From: a virus
Lineage: Duplodnaviria; Caudoviricetes
IMG/VR virus record: IMGVR_UViG_3300044653_000021
Coordinates: 1 to 51,150 of that record
Direction: 5' to 3' (one strand)
Length of the DNA: 51,150 bases
In this document: positions 2,360 to 31,570 of the stretch, one piece after another
Numbering within the stretch: position 1 is the stretch's first letter
Layout: every line of letters starts with the position of its first letter
Made by a program: the position numbers and the translations under genes
The notes under the pieces: model-generated
Told to the model about the DNA's origin: nothing
Seen by the model: only the letters and a program-made list of their open reading frames with translations
Databases searched by the model: none

Positions 2360-3616
2360 TTATTCAATGTTACAAATTGTTCCAGTTACTATAGTACCTG
2401 CTGGTGTTGTACCACTAAGTAATGCAGTAATAGCAAATGTTCCTGATGTTGCAGATGCTTGAATAATACCCCATGCTTGAAAGGGAGAATCTGTTACAGT
2501 AGTTAAAACAACTGTTGGTGTTGCAAATGGTACATTTCCTGCACTAGTTGAAGTAGCACTATTATAAGTAAATGCTTGTACTGCCGAAGCGCTTGATCCA
2601 ATTGATCCAATTAGACCATGACCAGTTTCAGTAGTGGGTGCTTGTGACGCATTCATTCCTAATGATATTTCAGGAGTAGTTCCAGCAGTAATAGAATAAC
2701 TACCATTACAAAACCAAGACCAAGTTTGTGCTGCATTCGGTAATGTCCAAGAACATATAGTAGTTGGAGAAGTTGAAAGGGTAATGGCACCATTTACTTT
2801 ACACTGATTTTGTAAAATTAACCCAGTATTATTAGAACTATTAACACTCCACGCTTCTGTTGTTCCACTACCAGTAGTACCTATACTAGCCCCCACCGCA
2901 CCAGTAGAAACTCCAGTTTGACTAGCTTTAAATGTTCCAGAATTTGTTATTTCAATTCCACCAGTAAAAATAGCAACTGCTATACCATTTGATAAGGCAC
3001 ATAAAATATTAGCCGAACATGCAGAAATACCTGTAGTATTATAAGAATTAAAAGTATACCCAGGAACAGTAGTTGAACCATTGGGTGCAATATAATTAGT
3101 ACCAGTATAAGTTAAAGTAGCACCATTATCAGTCAATAAACTATCAGGTCCAATAGTAGTACCACTTCCAGGATAAACACCTATCTGTCCAGTTGTACCT
3201 GTATTAACTGTACCAGAACCGCCACCAGCAGGATTATTTAAATATCCTGTAAGTGTAACGACAAGACTACCAGTGCCAGTAATAGAAGCAGCAGTATTAA
3301 TCCGAACATAATTCACCGTATGTGCTGTACTAGTAAAATTCCCACTACTAGTACATGTCTGTGACGCAATAATATCCCCGGAACCCCAACTACCAGTCCC
3401 GGTTGTACTACTATCAACTTCCACAGTACAAGCTGAAAGACTTCCAATTACATTCCATGATATCTGGTAATACTGTGTTCCACTACCAATAACAGGTAGT
3501 ATATACGGTGTTTGTACAGATAATGAATATGTCTGTGGAGGAGATTGTGTTGATAACTGACAAAAAGAAAAAGAAGATAACAACAAAATACACAAAAGTA
3601 AATTTATTTTTTTCAT
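2360..3616 (-). CDS. signal-peptide-bearing Thr/Ser/Gly-rich virion-module protein (fibre/decoration-like)
   Basis: MKKINLLLCILLLSSFSFC-Q signal peptide; N-domain paralogous to 5818-6549; GGGSGTVNTG linker typical of fibres. Confidence 0.65.
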   Translation of the reverse strand: MKKINLLLCILLLSSFSFCQLSTQSPPQTYSLSVQTPYILPVIGSGTQYYQISWNVIGSLSACTVEVDSSTTGTGSWGSGDIIASQTCTSSGNFTSTAHTVNYVRINTAASITGTGSLVVTLTGYLNNPAGGGSGTVNTGTTGQIGVYPGSGTTIGPDSLLTDNGATLTYTGTNYIAPNGSTTVPGYTFNSYNTTGISACSANILCALSNGIAVAIFTGGIEITNSGTFKASQTGVSTGAVGASIGTTGSGTTEAWSVNSSNNTGLILQNQCKVNGAITLSTSPTTICSWTLPNAAQTWSWFCNGSYSITAGTTPEISLGMNASQAPTTETGHGLIGSIGSSASAVQAFTYNSATSTSAGNVPFATPTVVLTTVTDSPFQAWGIIQASATSGTFAITALLSGTTPAGTIVTGTICNIE

Positions 3617-3629
3617 TGTTATCCTCTTT

Positions 3630-3917
3630 TTAATGATGATAAATACGTACTGTTCCAGTTAGCGTAATACCATTTATAGGTATCACAATCCCATCTGCAT
3701 GTCTTGATTGTCCTGTTCGGACAGTTTCTAGATCCGCAGCACCTTTTAAATAAGCAAAACTCTTCCCATTTGCTTGATTTATTGTTGCACTATCTGTGGT
3801 ATTTGTATACTGTTGAAACTCCACATTATCAATAAGACATTTATACGCAAACACTATCACAGGTCCAGCAGCAACATCCGCGGCCGTTATCACCCAAGGA
3901 TTTGATGTTACGTCCAT
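3630..3917 (-). CDS. hypothetical virion protein
   Basis: 95 aa, AGGAG RBS, in the structural operon. Confidence 0.6.
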   Translation of the reverse strand: MDVTSNPWVITAADVAAGPVIVFAYKCLIDNVEFQQYTNTTDSATINQANGKSFAYLKGAADLETVRTGQSRHADGIVIPINGITLTGTVRIYHH

Positions 3918-13068: not shown

Positions 13069-14958
13069 CTAATACCCCGTGACAGAATTCCTCCCAGCAT
13101 GTAACATCATAGCTTGTTTCTGCTGTTGTAATATAAAACCATCCATCTCTGGTTCACTCATTCTACTTAAATCAAGATTCTGCAACCCATGTCCTAAAAT
13201 ATCGAGGATATCCCTAGTTGCACAATGAGGGTATTCATTATATTCTTCCATAAACTTTTGCGTAAAGCCTGTCTGGTCGTTCTGACAAACCCATATCTGC
13301 CCCCGACGAAAAAATGGCTCTGCGTCCTCAATACGATCACTTTTCGCATTGTCACTCCGGTTGTCTTTAAATTCATTTATTTGATGGAAGTACCACTTTC
13401 CTAATGAACTTCTAAGTTTATCCTCAATCTCAAATGCCGTCTTACACCATGTTTGTCCTGCACTTATTTCGACCCATATCTCTCTAATCCGCCATTTCTC
13501 CGCCATAACATACGCATGGTGCATAATATCTTCCCGACTACAGGTATCAGCACGTCCATCAAGTATGTAAAGATTAAAAGGATCACGATTGATTCCAAGA
13601 AGCATAAGAGCATGATTCGCACGGCCTGTTTCTCCTTTATGATTCGGATCAATCATAAGCATTTTAGTGAGATTAGAAGTAGCTATATCTTTAGGAAGAA
13701 CACCATTATTCATCTCGTGGCGGACTGTCATATGGCGCTTGCTTACCATATCTTCGTGTGGGACAATCTGGTAGCCTTGTGTACCGAAAGAACCACTTTC
13801 GGACATAGGGATATTAATATTTATTTGTTTCCAACCGGGAGCAGCTTTGCTTATAGTGGTGGAAATTAATACATAATGTCGAAGCCACTCAGATTTAAAG
13901 GTATTTCCACCGGGAGGTATTGGTCGATTACGAAACTGACATGAATAAAAATATTCCCCAAGACGTTGACGCATTCTTAATAACTTAACCATCGACCATT
14001 CTTCAGGGAATATTGGTATTCCGGGTGGATGTAGTTCACAGCAACCACCTTCAGCATCATGTGTATGGAATTTGAAATAAGGAAGTTCTTTCTTAATCTT
14101 CCAATTAAGATCATGGAATGACCAACGATTTCCATTTACTACTTCATCACATTCCATGTCCGGATTAGTTGGATCAGAATCAAAAGCGCCTACTGCAAGT
14201 TGCATCCATTCCCATGTACTAAGAGCAACAAGTTCAGACTTAAGAGCATCTTTTCCATAGAGATCATCAAATACAAGGCGGCGATAATGTTTAGACTGAA
14301 GAGCAGCATCGACTCCCGTAAATTCATATGTCCCTTCACCTTGATTAGCATCTCCTTTTGTATAATCACGGAGATGTGTCATAGTGTCTGCTGTCCACTG
14401 ACACGATGTATTAGGAAGAATCTCAGGAAATAATTGTTTAAAGAAATTATTATTCTTATACTCTGACGATATCTTCTTCCCTACCTTCCATGCATTAGTA
14501 ATAGTCTCCATTGCTATCAATGTACGTGTATTTTGATCGTGAGCACGATGCATCCAAGCAATCCATTCATCACCATAACCAAGTGCCCTCATCATTCGCT
14601 CATCACGATCATTAAACGGCAAGGCCCACCAAATAGGCATACCGACACTACCAATGGTGGTTTTAAAATGATCTCTAGGTACTTCAAATACTTCTTTCAA
14701 AGACCAACTCTGAAAGGCATCACAATATTGACGATGAAAAGAATTAGAAAGCCTATGTTTACGAAGGATGAATTTAATGAAATAGAAGTTATCACCAAGG
14801 GCATTTAAACGATGGGAAAGGTTTTGGACATATGGGGAGAGTTTTGTACTAGGTGGGATTATATTCCAACGATAAGCATAGGACGTTCTATTGACTTCTT
14901 GTGTCAAGTCAACTTGCGGACTACTAATATCAGAGATATCTGTGAGGATTGTTGACAT
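13069..14958 (-). CDS. terL: terminase large subunit
   Basis: Walker A-like VPRDHFKTT, Walker B LVFDDL, NGNRWSFHDL motif, YSCQFRNRP, nuclease MIDPN, K.DRI and DILD motifs. Confidence 0.9.
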   Translation of the reverse strand: MSTILTDISDISSPQVDLTQEVNRTSYAYRWNIIPPSTKLSPYVQNLSHRLNALGDNFYFIKFILRKHRLSNSFHRQYCDAFQSWSLKEVFEVPRDHFKTTIGSVGMPIWWALPFNDRDERMMRALGYGDEWIAWMHRAHDQNTRTLIAMETITNAWKVGKKISSEYKNNNFFKQLFPEILPNTSCQWTADTMTHLRDYTKGDANQGEGTYEFTGVDAALQSKHYRRLVFDDLYGKDALKSELVALSTWEWMQLAVGAFDSDPTNPDMECDEVVNGNRWSFHDLNWKIKKELPYFKFHTHDAEGGCCELHPPGIPIFPEEWSMVKLLRMRQRLGEYFYSCQFRNRPIPPGGNTFKSEWLRHYVLISTTISKAAPGWKQININIPMSESGSFGTQGYQIVPHEDMVSKRHMTVRHEMNNGVLPKDIATSNLTKMLMIDPNHKGETGRANHALMLLGINRDPFNLYILDGRADTCSREDIMHHAYVMAEKWRIREIWVEISAGQTWCKTAFEIEDKLRSSLGKWYFHQINEFKDNRSDNAKSDRIEDAEPFFRRGQIWVCQNDQTGFTQKFMEEYNEYPHCATRDILDILGHGLQNLDLSRMSEPEMDGFILQQQKQAMMLHAGRNSVTGY

Positions 14959-15686: not shown

Positions 15687-16241
15687 TTAATGAGTGCTTT
15701 CTGTTAATGGCGGAGTGTTTATACTCGGCGCTGGCGGATTGGGTAACGATGCCCCGCCCCCGTTTGGGTGATTATTCTTCAATGCATTAATCATCTCCAA
15801 CACTGCCCTATTATCCTTATCATCTGCTATACCACCCTGTTCAGCAGTAGGAGTTCCAATTCTGCTAACTTTCGCAAAGCGCCCATCCCTGTCTAGAATA
15901 TCATTAAACGCCTTATTCTTAACTCTCTCATCCTTGGCCGTAAGTGCCTGTTTAACCAAACCTTGCATTGCTATCGGGACAGCAAATTCTAATGTCTCTT
16001 GGCTAATATTGTAGCCATTTTTAATCTTCGTATCAAAGTTAGTTAGCAATCCTGTCATATACTGATTATGTATTGTCTGATACAAAGGAGATGCTTTTAG
16101 AACGGAGAACCGCCCAATACTCAACCCACACAACAAAGCAATCTGCGTTGAATTAAGCTGCGGATTATCCAACTCCAGCCTAACCAACAGATTGATCTTG
16201 TCTATCGTCCTTTGATGCGGTTTGTTGCTGTGTCTTGCCAT
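15687..16241 (-). CDS. putative terminase small subunit
   Basis: N-terminal HTH-like segment, A...L......DERVK..A..DILDRDG motif, first large gene of the late arm. Confidence 0.6.
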   Translation of the reverse strand: MARHSNKPHQRTIDKINLLVRLELDNPQLNSTQIALLCGLSIGRFSVLKASPLYQTIHNQYMTGLLTNFDTKIKNGYNISQETLEFAVPIAMQGLVKQALTAKDERVKNKAFNDILDRDGRFAKVSRIGTPTAEQGGIADDKDNRAVLEMINALKNNHPNGGGASLPNPPAPSINTPPLTESTH

Positions 16242-16344
16242 AATACTCTTTTATGTGTAACAAAAGGGCATTAGCTAACGGGCCACTATCAATATCCTCA
16301 CCGCTATTGTCCATAGCTTTTTGAGATTCAATAGTAGTATCCAT
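16180..16344 (-). CDS. possible small hypothetical protein (54 aa, MDTTIESQKA...)
   Basis: read by eye, below the ORF-track cut-off; overlaps the start of the terminase small subunit candidate. Confidence 0.3.
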   Translation of the reverse strand: MDTTIESQKAMDNSGEDIDSGPLANALLLHIKEYYGKTQQQTASKDDRQDQSVG

Positions 16345-16462
16345 ACACTAATGCCCTCTCGCTCCCGGTAAGGCCTTCTGTGCCCATGCCTATTGGACAC
16401 AACTCTATCCTTTATATACACGCATGTCCAATAATATCCGCCCTTGTCTACCAACACTTTAC

Positions 16463-16491
16463 AATTTATTTTTCCAAACCCCGCCTGTCTA
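16463..16491 (-). promoter_or_regulatory. putative sigma70-like promoter for the morphogenesis arm
   Basis: minus strand TAGACA-17 nt-TAAATT. Confidence 0.45.
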
Positions 16492-16794
16492 CAAAAACTC
16501 CCTCCGACCAACTCTTAACAACACTAACTTAGTACAATCAAACTCCCATTATTACACAATTTCCCTTAATAGAGATGATTATTTACTCCGAGTATATTAT
16601 TTTTTACAAAAAATTTTTGTGCAACGTATGCAATTTCATTACCAAACAAGTGTATTACTAGTGTCGCCTTGGTTAATAGCATAATGGTTAATACTTTGTA
16701 TCATAAAGTACTCTGTAGTAATCATTAGTATGATGATAGACTTACTTGTTTCAGTCGTTACAGAATTAACTGAATGATCTTTATTAAAATAAAC

Positions 16795-16822
16795 TTGACA
16801 CTGACCACGGCTGTGGTAGGAT
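16795..16822 (+). promoter_or_regulatory. strong sigma70-like early promoter
   Basis: TTGACA-16 nt-TAGGAT with extended -10 TGn and an AT-rich upstream element; spacer holds the inverted repeat accac...gtggt. Confidence 0.65.
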
Positions 16823-16824
16823 TA

Positions 16825-17120
16825 CACCATTACAGCAGGTTGATCGGTTGACCGGAATTGGCGTGAGGCGTGGTCAACACAACCGATGGTAATAGATGGC
16901 ACGATGATTACAGCGCGGACTGTGTAGTGTTAGACAGTCAGGCACATCAAAGCAAGCGCAATGCTATCATGTCCCATCTTGTATGACAAGCGGTACAGCT
17001 TAACTGCTGTTAGCTTGGTGCTGTTAGATCGGATGGCCTGAATTACAATGAATAGGCCAACGGTTGGTAACAGCAAGCCAAGTAATGGTGGGAGCTGCTT
17101 ACTCCGCAATCTTTTTTCTT
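16825..17120 (+). ncRNA. candidate large structured ncRNA (~270-290 nt), family unknown
   Basis: ends pair (caccattac 16825-33 / gtaatggtg 17082-90); several nested helices; hairpin plus T-run at 17091-17120; no credible ORF. Confidence 0.6.
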
Positions 17121-17137
17121 CTGCTAGTAGCCTAGAA

Positions 17138-17282
17138 AGTACAGGTTAATGAGTGGGAGTGAAAGAACACTGCCTTAACCAAAGCCTATCCACTAAGCAG
17201 GTAAGCTAGCATATCCTGTTCTTTAGTCTGATACGCAACTAGGACAGTACACTTCTCTCCCTCTCACGCGTTAACCTGTACT
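17138..17282 (+). ncRNA. candidate structured RNA / leader element (~145 nt)
   Basis: perfect 12 bp closing stem agtacaggttaa / ttaacctgtact extended by tgagtgggag / ctccctctca. Confidence 0.5.
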
Positions 17283-17317
17283 AATCAAGACTACAATTCA
17301 AAGCGGAGGATAATACA

Positions 17318-17761
17318 ATGCCAGTAGCAACGGAAGTAAAGACGGTTGTTCCGGTTGTGGGATTGGAGAACAAGGAAAACAAGGAAACCAGCAAACTTGA
17401 GCAAGTTACTACCACGATTGAGAAAGACAAAGAATCAATTGTGGTGGTGAATACTGCTACGACAACGTTGGTTGAGTTGGCCTTTGAGTTACAACGTAAT
17501 GAGGCTAACTCGTTTGACAATCCTTCTCAGTATCAGCGTTACATGCTTGAACAGGGGGCGATTAAGGAATTGAAGTATGGTTGCCAGCAAGCAATTGGAC
17601 GTTGGAAGAGTCTTGTGGTTAAGATGGCAGGGAGTCCTGCATATAAGGGAACTAAGACACAAGATGAAGTAGAACTCATTGCTAAAGGGCATCCGAAGTG
17701 TCAGACGATGCTCAAGGCAATGGAGCGGGCTGTGGCAATCAAGAAGCAATATAACTTCTAG
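17318..17761 (+). CDS. hypothetical early protein
   Basis: 147 aa, GGAGG RBS, first ORF of the early arm. Confidence 0.7.
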   Translation: MPVATEVKTVVPVVGLENKENKETSKLEQVTTTIEKDKESIVVVNTATTTLVELAFELQRNEANSFDNPSQYQRYMLEQGAIKELKYGCQQAIGRWKSLVVKMAGSPAYKGTKTQDEVELIAKGHPKCQTMLKAMERAVAIKKQYNF

Positions 17762-17827
17762 GTTACGCTAATAGTCTATGCTATGGTAAATAGCGGTGAC
17801 TAGGCTATTAGCAGGAGGAAAAAGAAT

Positions 17828-17992
17828 ATGTATTCGGATAATGATTCCCGTGGTGCTTACTGCCCTCAGTGCGGATTACATCATACGCATCATGATGATA
17901 GTATTTGTGGATTTCGTTATTATCACGACGAAATCAATCATGAGAGAGGATGGATTCCTGATTATGATGCAGAAGAACAAGCGCAAGACTAA
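17828..17992 (+). CDS. small Cys/His protein (54 aa, MYSDNDSRGAYCPQCGLHHTHH...)
   Basis: read by eye; AGGAGG RBS; CxxC and His cluster; absent from the ORF track. Confidence 0.6.
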   Translation: MYSDNDSRGAYCPQCGLHHTHHDDSICGFRYYHDEINHERGWIPDYDAEEQAQD

Positions 17993-18368
17993 CAAGACAT
18001 TGGATGAGATAATTGACTCGTTTGTATGTCCTGTTAGGTCGGATGAGCATAAGATTGCTCAGGAGAAACGGAGGATTTCTAATGAAGCAATACGGGTATA
18101 TAATCGCGCTTCTAGTATGCATGGGAATCCGTTTGCTGGTGATACTACGGTTTTGGATAAAGCCGTAGATAATAGGCGGGATTCTGTACCGTTAACGATG
18201 GATGAGATTATTGATAGCGTCCAGCATCCAAGGCGAGCATTTCGGGTTAAACGAAATTTGTCTCGTTTAATGCCGGATGTGGTTAGTCCGGAAGTTAGGC
18301 AAGTCTGGCTTGAGAAGATTCATGGTAGTAGGTTACGTGGGGCAAAATCATTAAAGGAGAAAAGTTAA
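17964..18368 (+). CDS. hypothetical basic protein
   Basis: start moved to MMQKNK; internal repeat TLDEIIDS / TMDEIIDS. Confidence 0.55.
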   Translation: MMQKNKRKTNKTLDEIIDSFVCPVRSDEHKIAQEKRRISNEAIRVYNRASSMHGNPFAGDTTVLDKAVDNRRDSVPLTMDEIIDSVQHPRRAFRVKRNLSRLMPDVVSPEVRQVWLEKIHGSRLRGAKSLKEKS

Positions 18369-21481: not shown

Positions 21482-21898
21482 ATGATAACACTTGAAAGAC
21501 TAAAAGAATTTAATATGACTCCACAATATATGGCGGGATTGTTTGATGGTGAGGGAAGTGTAGGAGTTCATTTACAGAAAAAGAAAAATTATCTCATACT
21601 GAGAATGACTTTAACACAGAAAGATCCAACTATTCTATATTTTATAGCAGGTAAATTTCCTGTTGATAGAATATTTATGAATAATATAGTTAATCATGTA
21701 TATCAAGCAGAATGGAGAAATGAAAAAGCTCTTGATCTACTTAATTATATTAAAAATGATTGTATTATAAAATACAATCAAGTTCAAATGGCTTTAAAGT
21801 TCATTAGTATCTACAGATCACATACTCAAGTAGATAATGATGAAAAGTGGTTACTACGTGAAACTTTAAAAAAAGAAAAAGAAGTAAATATACATTAA
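21482..21898 (+). CDS. LAGLIDADG homing endonuclease (single motif, free-standing)
   Basis: YMAGLFDGEGSV motif, LTQKD, C-terminal IIKYNQ; lower GC than its neighbour. Confidence 0.85.
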   Translation: MITLERLKEFNMTPQYMAGLFDGEGSVGVHLQKKKNYLILRMTLTQKDPTILYFIAGKFPVDRIFMNNIVNHVYQAEWRNEKALDLLNYIKNDCIIKYNQVQMALKFISIYRSHTQVDNDEKWLLRETLKKEKEVNIH

Positions 21899-31485: not shown

Positions 31486-31570
31486 GCCGTTATGGTGGAA
31501 TTGGTATACACAAGGGACTTAAAATCCCTCGGCTTTGGCCATATGGGTTCGAGTCCCATTAACGGCACCA
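31486..31570 (+). tRNA. trnL: tRNA-Leu (anticodon TAA)
   Basis: acceptor stem gccgtta/taacggc plus ACCA, D-loop TGG, anticodon arm aggga-cttaaaa-tccct, long variable arm, GGTTCGAGTCC T-arm. Confidence 0.95.

Follow-up and report, generated by a model that had tools for sequence, protein, structure and literature searches.

Genes and promoter of the divergent region

The window, that is the whole stretch of DNA analysed, is a complete IMG/VR virus record of 51,150 bp, and soil metagenome runs contain DNA near-identical to it. Minus-strand genes run leftwards from 16241. The first of these is a small-terminase-like gene (terS, 15687–16241), and the large terminase gene (terL) follows at 13069–14958. 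On the plus strand, an early arm of DNA-metabolism genes extends from 17318 to ~38500 as an operon of ~21 kb. The structured element described here sits in the 1.08-kb divergent intergenic region between them. Blastn of 16600–17400 against GenBank phages gave no match, and the TerL of the closest GenBank phage is only 27.5% identical; hence no GenBank phage is close. A small minus-strand ORF of 54 aa (16180–16344) overlaps the start of terS and is conserved in a sister phage described below (L003 3762–3953, 63 aa).

Gene 1 of the early arm (17318–17761, plus strand) encodes a helical protein of 147 aa, for which Pfam gave nothing above the cut-off, PHROGs nothing, and Atlas only sub-threshold helical look-alikes. 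It is followed by gene 2 (17828–17992, plus strand), a Cys/His-containing ORF of 54 aa with a weak zinc-ribbon hint (E 0.09), and by gene 3 (17967–18368, plus strand), which begins before gene 2 ends. The 5′ UTR of gene 1 carries a long plus-strand hairpin (17138–17282) whose 30-nt arms are 83% complementary. Contigs of an RNA-library run (X5) cover only 17454–17768 and 18145–18200 in this region; that they leave the fold and both arms described below uncovered says nothing either way. The first, of 315 nt, matches gene 1 exactly and ends 7 nt past its stop codon, before the 3′ arm of the long helix described below; assembled contigs cannot reveal RNA ends. Further along the early arm, a LAGLIDADG homing-endonuclease-like ORF lies at 21482–21898 (Pfam PF00961, E 4e-6, above cut-off). 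There is also a second long inverted repeat (18610–18665/18998–19053; 56 nt, 71% complementary, with a perfect core of 15–17 bp) that encloses ~330 nt.

Relatives were sought by IMG/VR, metagenome and genome scans, which gave one other record with the element, a 5,064-bp contig (L004; the same contig as L005 and L019). Its gene 1 is 70% identical and co-occurs with the fold. The gene 1 proteins P0001 (93%) and P0002 (83%) are closer still. L004 conserves gene 3, and the start of gene 3 in the window was inferred by eye from the ORF at L004:3682. At the place of gene 2 it has a different Cys-rich ORF of 67 aa, and a shorter, different hairpin lies in its gene 1 5′ UTR. The sister phage (G001, locus L003) is complete at 51,571 bp, with TerS 76% and TerL 77% identical to those of the window. 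In IMG/VR, an exact 30-mer scan gave no match, an arm 20-mer one match, and the protein scans two loci for TerS, four for TerL and one for gene 1. Pattern scans of IMG/VR mostly returned chance stretches: 13 of 14 for the loop A motif (in unrelated high-GC contexts), three of four for the two-loop pattern and four of six for the upstream-block pattern. The metagenome scan with the gene 1 alignment gave two loci, the L004 contig and a false one (L020, antisense of a GTPase gene of a high-GC bacterium). In the genome scans, none of 122 candidate stretches matched the gene 1 alignment and none the two-loop pattern.

A sigma-70-type promoter-like site precedes the element on the plus strand (16795–16822), with TTGACA, a 16-nt spacer and TAGGAT, and TG before the −10 hexamer. 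With 10 of 12 matches it is the best of 11 sites in 16000–18000, which bears out the near-consensus promoter proposed in the earlier note. Transcription would start near A16829, ~7 nt past the −10 hexamer. The promoter scan of L004 found no matching site at the equivalent place, where only a TG-TATTAT −10 could be recognised by eye. A promoter-like site on the minus strand (16989–16961) was rejected; by eye it is absent from L004.

The G+C content is 0.49 across the fold compared to 0.30 immediately upstream, and the region lies where the genes change orientation and the GC skew has its minimum. The AT-rich block beside it, upstream of the early promoter, is kept in all relatives (window 16566–16750; L003 3358–3509; L004 2378–2520; L029 1–150; L030 1–340). 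The fragments L029 and L030 stop short of the fold. The block contains a near-palindrome of A and T runs, then AACGT and a GCATAATG motif. Motifs of the TGATAGAC type are repeated at least five times in L030; in the window, checked for such repeats as possible iterons, there is one exact copy, with 13 matches at up to one mismatch compared to 10.5 expected. The block could work as an operator, as an origin or as a promoter specific to the phage. Separately, a 20-nt inverted repeat (90%) links 16298–16317, in the small ORF upstream of terS, with 17780–17799, in the spacer before the ribosome binding site (RBS) of gene 2. As RNA of their own operon strands the two are near-identical 20-mers, each of which could form a small hairpin.

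Fold of the putative leader and its conservation

The earlier note had described a large multi-helix non-coding RNA as the first transcript of the early arm. The complementary segments that it listed all lie where it placed them: 16825–33/17083–91, 16832–38/17004–10, 16843–50/16880–87, the gatggcacgatgat/atcatgtcccatc stem, gactgt/acagtc and the long arm at 17014–17082. The minimum-energy fold of 16825–17120 is a closed multi-helix structure of −104.5 kcal/mol. Most of the listed helices are used in it; 16832–38/17004–10 is not, and hairpin A forms in another register. The folding energy is better than that of shuffled sequences, with z −3.34 for 16825–17120 and −4.77 for 16825–17091 and none of 200 shuffles as good in either case. 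Against a genome background taken from 83 of 128 plus-strand segments of 267 nt (30 shuffles each; z −0.94 ± 1.54), the segment at 16801 ranks 5th of 83, and several other early-arm segments score alike. The stability of the fold lies in the tail of the genome distribution, not beyond it, and is not unique.

The fold (16825–17091, plus strand) is made up of hairpins A–D. In hairpin A (16838–16884), an AUCG/A internal loop separates the outer helix from an inner one of 8 bp, and the conserved terminal loop measures 16–18 nt (16854–16871). Domain B (16889–16985) is a long stem leading into a three-way junction, with an apical hairpin (16917–16939) and a conserved loop (16923–16934). Hairpin D (17003–17093) has a core at 17014–17082 that can be extended through 17004–17012/17083–17091. 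For loops A and B, no loop–loop or loop–target complementarity was found elsewhere in the window. Rfam 15 (4227 models, including C4, riboswitches, T-box, pRNA, 6S, Y RNA and tmRNA) gave no match to the element at the gathering score, in agreement with the earlier reader, who did not recognise the family. At E values up to 10, only 3 and 2 weak eukaryotic snoRNA/lncRNA/miRNA hits were obtained, none common to the window and L004. The sole Rfam hit in the window is a tRNA gene at 31486–31567 (61.6 bits).

The pairing of the two ends of the element (16825–33/17083–91), with which the earlier note closed the structure, is doubtful. If transcription starts at A16829, four of the nine bases of its 5′ strand (CACC, 16825–28) would not be transcribed, and the helix is absent from the fold of L004. 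For its 3′ strand (17083–17091), another conserved partner is available immediately in front of hairpin D (17004–17012). The extended hairpin D has 17 pairs kept in the window and L004, with two changed on both sides. The leader folded from 16829 adopts this extended hairpin instead of the closing helix.

Alternatively, the stretch could act as DNA within the divergent control region, be it as an origin, as a packaging site or as a cluster of protein-binding palindromes, or the fold could be a functionless product of chance. The opposite strand folds well too (z −4.30), the z score of the fold is not unique in the genome, the locus combines the orientation switch and the GC-skew minimum with an adjoining conserved AT-rich block, and the TGATAGAC-type motifs are repeated upstream in relatives. 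Against this stand the single exact copy of that motif in the window and the comparison of the window with L004. The L004 sequence by itself does not fold better than shuffles (z −1.18, 26 of 200 as good). Hairpin A of L004 has the same outer helix and AUCG/A internal loop and a terminal loop identical at 17 of 18 positions, with the 8-bp inner helix re-sequenced. Independent folds of domain B from the two sequences agree on a Y shape (z −2.36 for the window, −2.10 for L004); its apical loop is identical, while three of the six pairs of the apical stem are changed on both sides. Hairpin D keeps its base in L004 and has lost the apical part (z −3.96 in the window, −1.25 in L004).

RNAalifold of the two sequences gave 64 consensus pairs, of which 18 are changed on both sides compared to 0–2 in slid controls. 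These counts are biased upwards, since they come from two sequences only and from a consensus structure derived from the same pair, and several of the double changes in the inner helix of hairpin A arise because MAFFT shifted the register by 1 nt. On the plus strand the consensus has an energy of −53.8 kcal/mol, versus −30.8 on the minus strand, and 17 of 128 consensus cells are in G.U pairs, which would be A.C on the opposite strand. The plus strand is favoured for the fold. With stems that appear to covary around fixed loops and with G.U pairs on one strand, a DNA element or chance fold is quite improbable. Of the proposal in the earlier note, a multi-hairpin RNA element directly behind the early promoter, here seen to be conserved and strand-specific, is retained; the separate termination of that RNA, considered below, is not.

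Other relatives lack the hairpin domain or parts of it. The complete genome of G001 contains no match to the element anywhere. Its own leader of 274 nt is unrelated to that of the window and is also stable (z −4.04). In this phage, a unit of ~38 nt that can form a hairpin (agagt..caacggacagat..ggtactct; L003 2960–3060, minus strand) occurs as two direct copies where the window has its hairpins. A relative in metagenome run X6, available as contigs only, is without 21 letters that correspond to the apical hairpin of domain B, and another sequence replaces 16689–16892.

These observations bear on the suggestion that the hairpin domain acts independently of the arm described below, as an antiterminator RNA of the put/EAR type or as a decoy for a host or defence protein, with the conserved loops as contacts. 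The domain lies directly behind the early promoter of a ~21-kb operon, its loops are near-identical while the stems change, and it has neither an ORF nor a known family, all of which would suit such a role. The absence of the domain from the sister phage, the X6 relative, in which the apical hairpin of B is missing and A is replaced by other sequence, and the lack of similarity to any Rfam family point away from it, and this explanation is distinctly unlikely. Most likely, the hairpins serve as a stable domain at the 5′ end, as a platform on which a factor acts, or as both; stabilisation of the 5′ end and antitermination are among the possible roles. The decoy, anti-defence, scaffold and antitermination roles named in the earlier note are still candidates. 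The domain is an unclassified RNA with conserved loops that deserves a family model once more homologues exist.

Complementarity between the arm behind the fold and the gene 2 ribosome binding site

Downstream of hairpin D, the plus-strand segment 17110–17135, which includes a T-run, forms the 5′ arm (upstream complementary sequence, or anti-RBS) of a predicted long-range helix. The 3′ arm (17800–17825, plus strand) comprises the Shine-Dalgarno (SD) sequence AGGAGG (17813–18) and the spacer of gene 2, the ATG of which is at 17828. As RNA, the two arms form 26 bp with 23 Watson-Crick (WC) pairs, 3 G.U pairs and no mismatch; all three mismatches at the DNA level are G.U on plus-strand RNA. Within spans of 1500 nt, neither strand of the 51,150-bp genome has a longer perfect WC/GU helix; the runners-up measure 18 bp on the plus and 21 bp on the minus strand. 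The duplex energy is −39.8 kcal/mol on the early strand compared to −27.9 for the opposite-strand RNAs. When the arm was compared with 50 start regions of the genome, gene 2 gave −41.1 and the next best −17.0. Pairing of the arm with the SD of gene 1 is seen in leader-only folds of the three phages; it is not claimed here because its duplex energy ranks only 7th of the 50 start regions.

The helix is present in all three phages whose sequence covers the region (window, L004 and L003). Minimum-energy folds of transcripts of ~1 kb contain 26 of 26 helix pairs in the window (1,072 nt), 27 of 27 in L004 and 29 of 30 in L003, with mean pair probabilities of 0.99, 0.99 and 0.945 respectively. L004 has the same 5′ arm, and its 3′ arm is changed at two positions, both absorbed as G-C or G.U. 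Around the arm (~17107–17138), 31 bases are identical between the window and L004 while the flanks diverge, with a one-letter register difference beyond the arm. In L003, 30 nt upstream of gene 1 pair with the gene 2 RBS through 26 WC pairs, 3 G.U and 1 A.G; the arm sequences, the leader and gene 1 (BLASTP E 0.46) are unrelated to those of the window. Across the phages, the duplex energy is ~−40 kcal/mol on the early strand and −28 to −32 on the opposite strand, and all helix mismatches but one are G.U on the early strand, a bias that also weighs against the DNA-level and chance explanations. One X6 contig matches the window from 17109 rightwards, with 138 letters to the left unlike it, a weak hint that the arm may be conserved as a module of its own. 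The strongest evidence of the analysis is that the helix is kept in three of three phages although the sequence, the looped-out gene and the occluded gene differ; because of this, the pairing appears to be selected, and at the RNA level.

A local plus-strand hairpin (17767–17812, pairing 17767–78 with 17801–12) would take up part of the 3′ arm, and the same arrangement is found in L004. Elsewhere in the genome, the RBS and start codon of a late gene (2360–3616, minus strand, 418 aa) lie in a perfect WC/GU hairpin of 21 bp (3568–3631), the partner being a segment 22 nt downstream within its own coding region. By sequence, RBS occlusion may be used more than once by this phage.

The earlier note had taken a hairpin and the T-run as the terminator of a separate first transcript. 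The hairpin (17091–17106, plus strand) has a stem of only 4–5 bp, 4 nt from the T-run, and by eye its pairs are not kept in L004; no plus-strand terminator was called in 16000–18000. Because the T-run is the 5′ arm of a conserved helix of 26–30 bp and no terminator was called, the element is better read as a structured 5′ leader than as a separately terminated transcript. If this reading holds, a hairpin with a T-run that follows a structured RNA in a phage is no sure sign of a terminator.

The arm itself could instead belong to a discrete, stable RNA of ~290–310 nt, produced by termination at the T-run or by processing, that represses gene 2 as an antisense RNA in trans or in cis; its hairpins would be the scaffold that protects it and its 3′ tail would provide the seed, as in the c4 RNA of P1/P7. 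The position of the arm directly 3′ of the fold, its complementarity to the gene 2 RBS, the co-conservation of fold and arm in L004 and the presence of a T-run with a weak hairpin agree with this explanation, and RNase III could cut the 26-bp helix and so free the leader. The lack of a called terminator and of an Rfam C4 match does not, and a transcript ending inside the T-run would have lost some two thirds of the conserved arm. A discrete antisense RNA is unlikely on balance.

The earlier note found no credible ORF in the element. No conserved ORF is present, but a frame of 33 codons (17048–17149) crosses the T-run. If this frame, or its 24-codon counterpart in L004, were translated through the arm, ribosomes would open the helix and couple translation of gene 2 to that of the leader. 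In both phages this frame runs open across the arm and stops at the same aligned codon soon after it, and tblastn gives 75% identity over 20 residues. Those shared residues are explained by the identical arm. Moreover, neither ATG has an SD, the start positions differ, about 8 of the 10 differing codons are non-synonymous by eye, and L003 has no comparable ORF, only a TTG-started frame of 32 codons ending inside its arm. Translation of a leader peptide is highly improbable.

Proposed function of the leader and comparison with known systems

We favour, with somewhat better than even confidence, the view that 16825–17091 is a structured 5′ leader of the early mRNA on the plus strand, equipped with a cis-acting anti-RBS arm at 17110–17135, and is not a separately terminated non-coding RNA. 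A transcript from the early promoter would carry hairpins A–D, the arm, the hairpin-rich 5′ UTR and gene 1, in this order. Once the polymerase has passed gene 1, the arm would pair over 26 bp with the SD and spacer of gene 2 (17800–17825), and gene 1 would then be held in a loop of 664 nt. Such a helix would bar ribosome entry at gene 2 and the overlapping gene 3 on leader-bearing transcripts, and gene 1 would stay translatable meanwhile. The local hairpin at 17767–78/17801–12 would compete for half of the 3′ arm and could modulate the occlusion. No structural link between hairpins and arm was found when looked for. In L003 the arm goes with a different leader, so that the functions of fold and arm may be separate.

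A perfect helix of 26–30 bp would also be a natural substrate for RNase III, and a cut would free a structured leader of ~300 nt and the gene 1 mRNA. Since cleavage of the helix would release the leader as a discrete RNA, the non-coding RNA of the earlier note could still be right. A further reading builds on such cleavage: an rRNA-like leader–trailer helix around the first gene, from which RNase III releases a stable ~300-nt RNA of a new family, with invariant loops that bind a host or defence factor in trans, together with a panhandle-protected gene 1 mRNA and a translation switch for genes 2 and 3. For this reading, the comparison of the window and L004 with L003 suggests that leader and gene 1 would be exchanged between phages as one cognate module. 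We regard this more elaborate scheme as a long shot.

If the cis-acting leader is correct, these uncultured soil phages would time or ration their first early proteins by RNA folding, beyond promoters alone. A single leader arm of 26–30 nt would span a whole gene to close the next ribosome site, and the design would persist while every sequence involved is replaced. The arm and RBS design could serve as a compact translational switch. Narrow word searches of the literature found no description of this arrangement in a dsDNA phage; one may still be in print.

The components of the proposed leader have parallels in known systems. In P1 and P7, c4 and its target reportedly lie on the same transcript, with an RBS as the target, translational coupling and processing by RNase P, as given by Citron & Schuster in 1990 and in later work. 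As in that system (Rfam C4, RF01695), the candidate regulator here precedes its target within one operon and on one strand, and it is complementary to the RBS and start region of a small ORF further on, which overlaps the gene after it. Unlike in P1/P7, a whole protein gene lies between arm and target, the complementarity forms one continuous helix of 26–30 bp instead of two short segments, the leader contains a multi-hairpin domain of ~270 nt where c4 is a 77-nt RNA, and the C4 model does not match. The excerpted account of the P1/P7 immI region has C4 and Icd controlling the expression of Ant (PMC8201110).

In the 5′ UTR of the maturation gene of MS2 and other leviviruses, according to the excerpted report, an upstream complementary sequence pairs at long distance with the SD within a four-helix cloverleaf (PMC4615214). 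The resemblance lies in a multi-helix 5′ leader whose upstream complement sequesters an RBS (PMC4615214, in the same excerpt); in the window as well, an upstream complement pairs with an SD in the predicted fold, and this is kept in relatives. MS2 is an RNA phage in which a span of ~100 nt occludes the RBS of the first gene, whereas here, in a dsDNA phage, a loop of 529–664 nt with a complete gene would lead to occlusion of the RBS of the second.

In rRNA operons, as described in the excerpt of PMC10250234, complementary sequences flanking a gene form a long helix and a structured leader follows the promoter. Like the leader–trailer helices of rRNA, which are RNase III stalks, the present helix exceeds 20 bp, arises from sequences that flank a whole gene, and has its leader directly behind a promoter. 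It differs in that the enclosed gene is protein-coding and the trailer strand is a ribosome binding site, and no boxA, boxB or boxC elements were identified here.

In T4, early read-through transcripts hide the RBS of e, soc and I-TevI inside a hairpin, and transcripts from a later internal promoter leave it free. Similarly, the start of the transcript would decide RBS occlusion in the proposed leader; the T4 hairpins are local, however, and no internal promoter was found between the arms of the present helix. The hbs mRNA of B. subtilis provides a 5′/3′-UTR interaction, a long-range leader/trailer pairing around a coding sequence (PMC5737220, excerpted text). That pairing controls RNase access and stability of a monocistronic mRNA, and the excerpt reports no occlusion of a downstream RBS (PMC5737220).

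What distinguishes the present case from MS2, P1/P7 c4 and the rRNA helices is a helix that spans a complete protein gene in a dsDNA phage. On its sequence features, the element is best described as a structured leader, new and unclassified, whose conserved anti-RBS arm would act over a long range and exert a kind of control that is already known.
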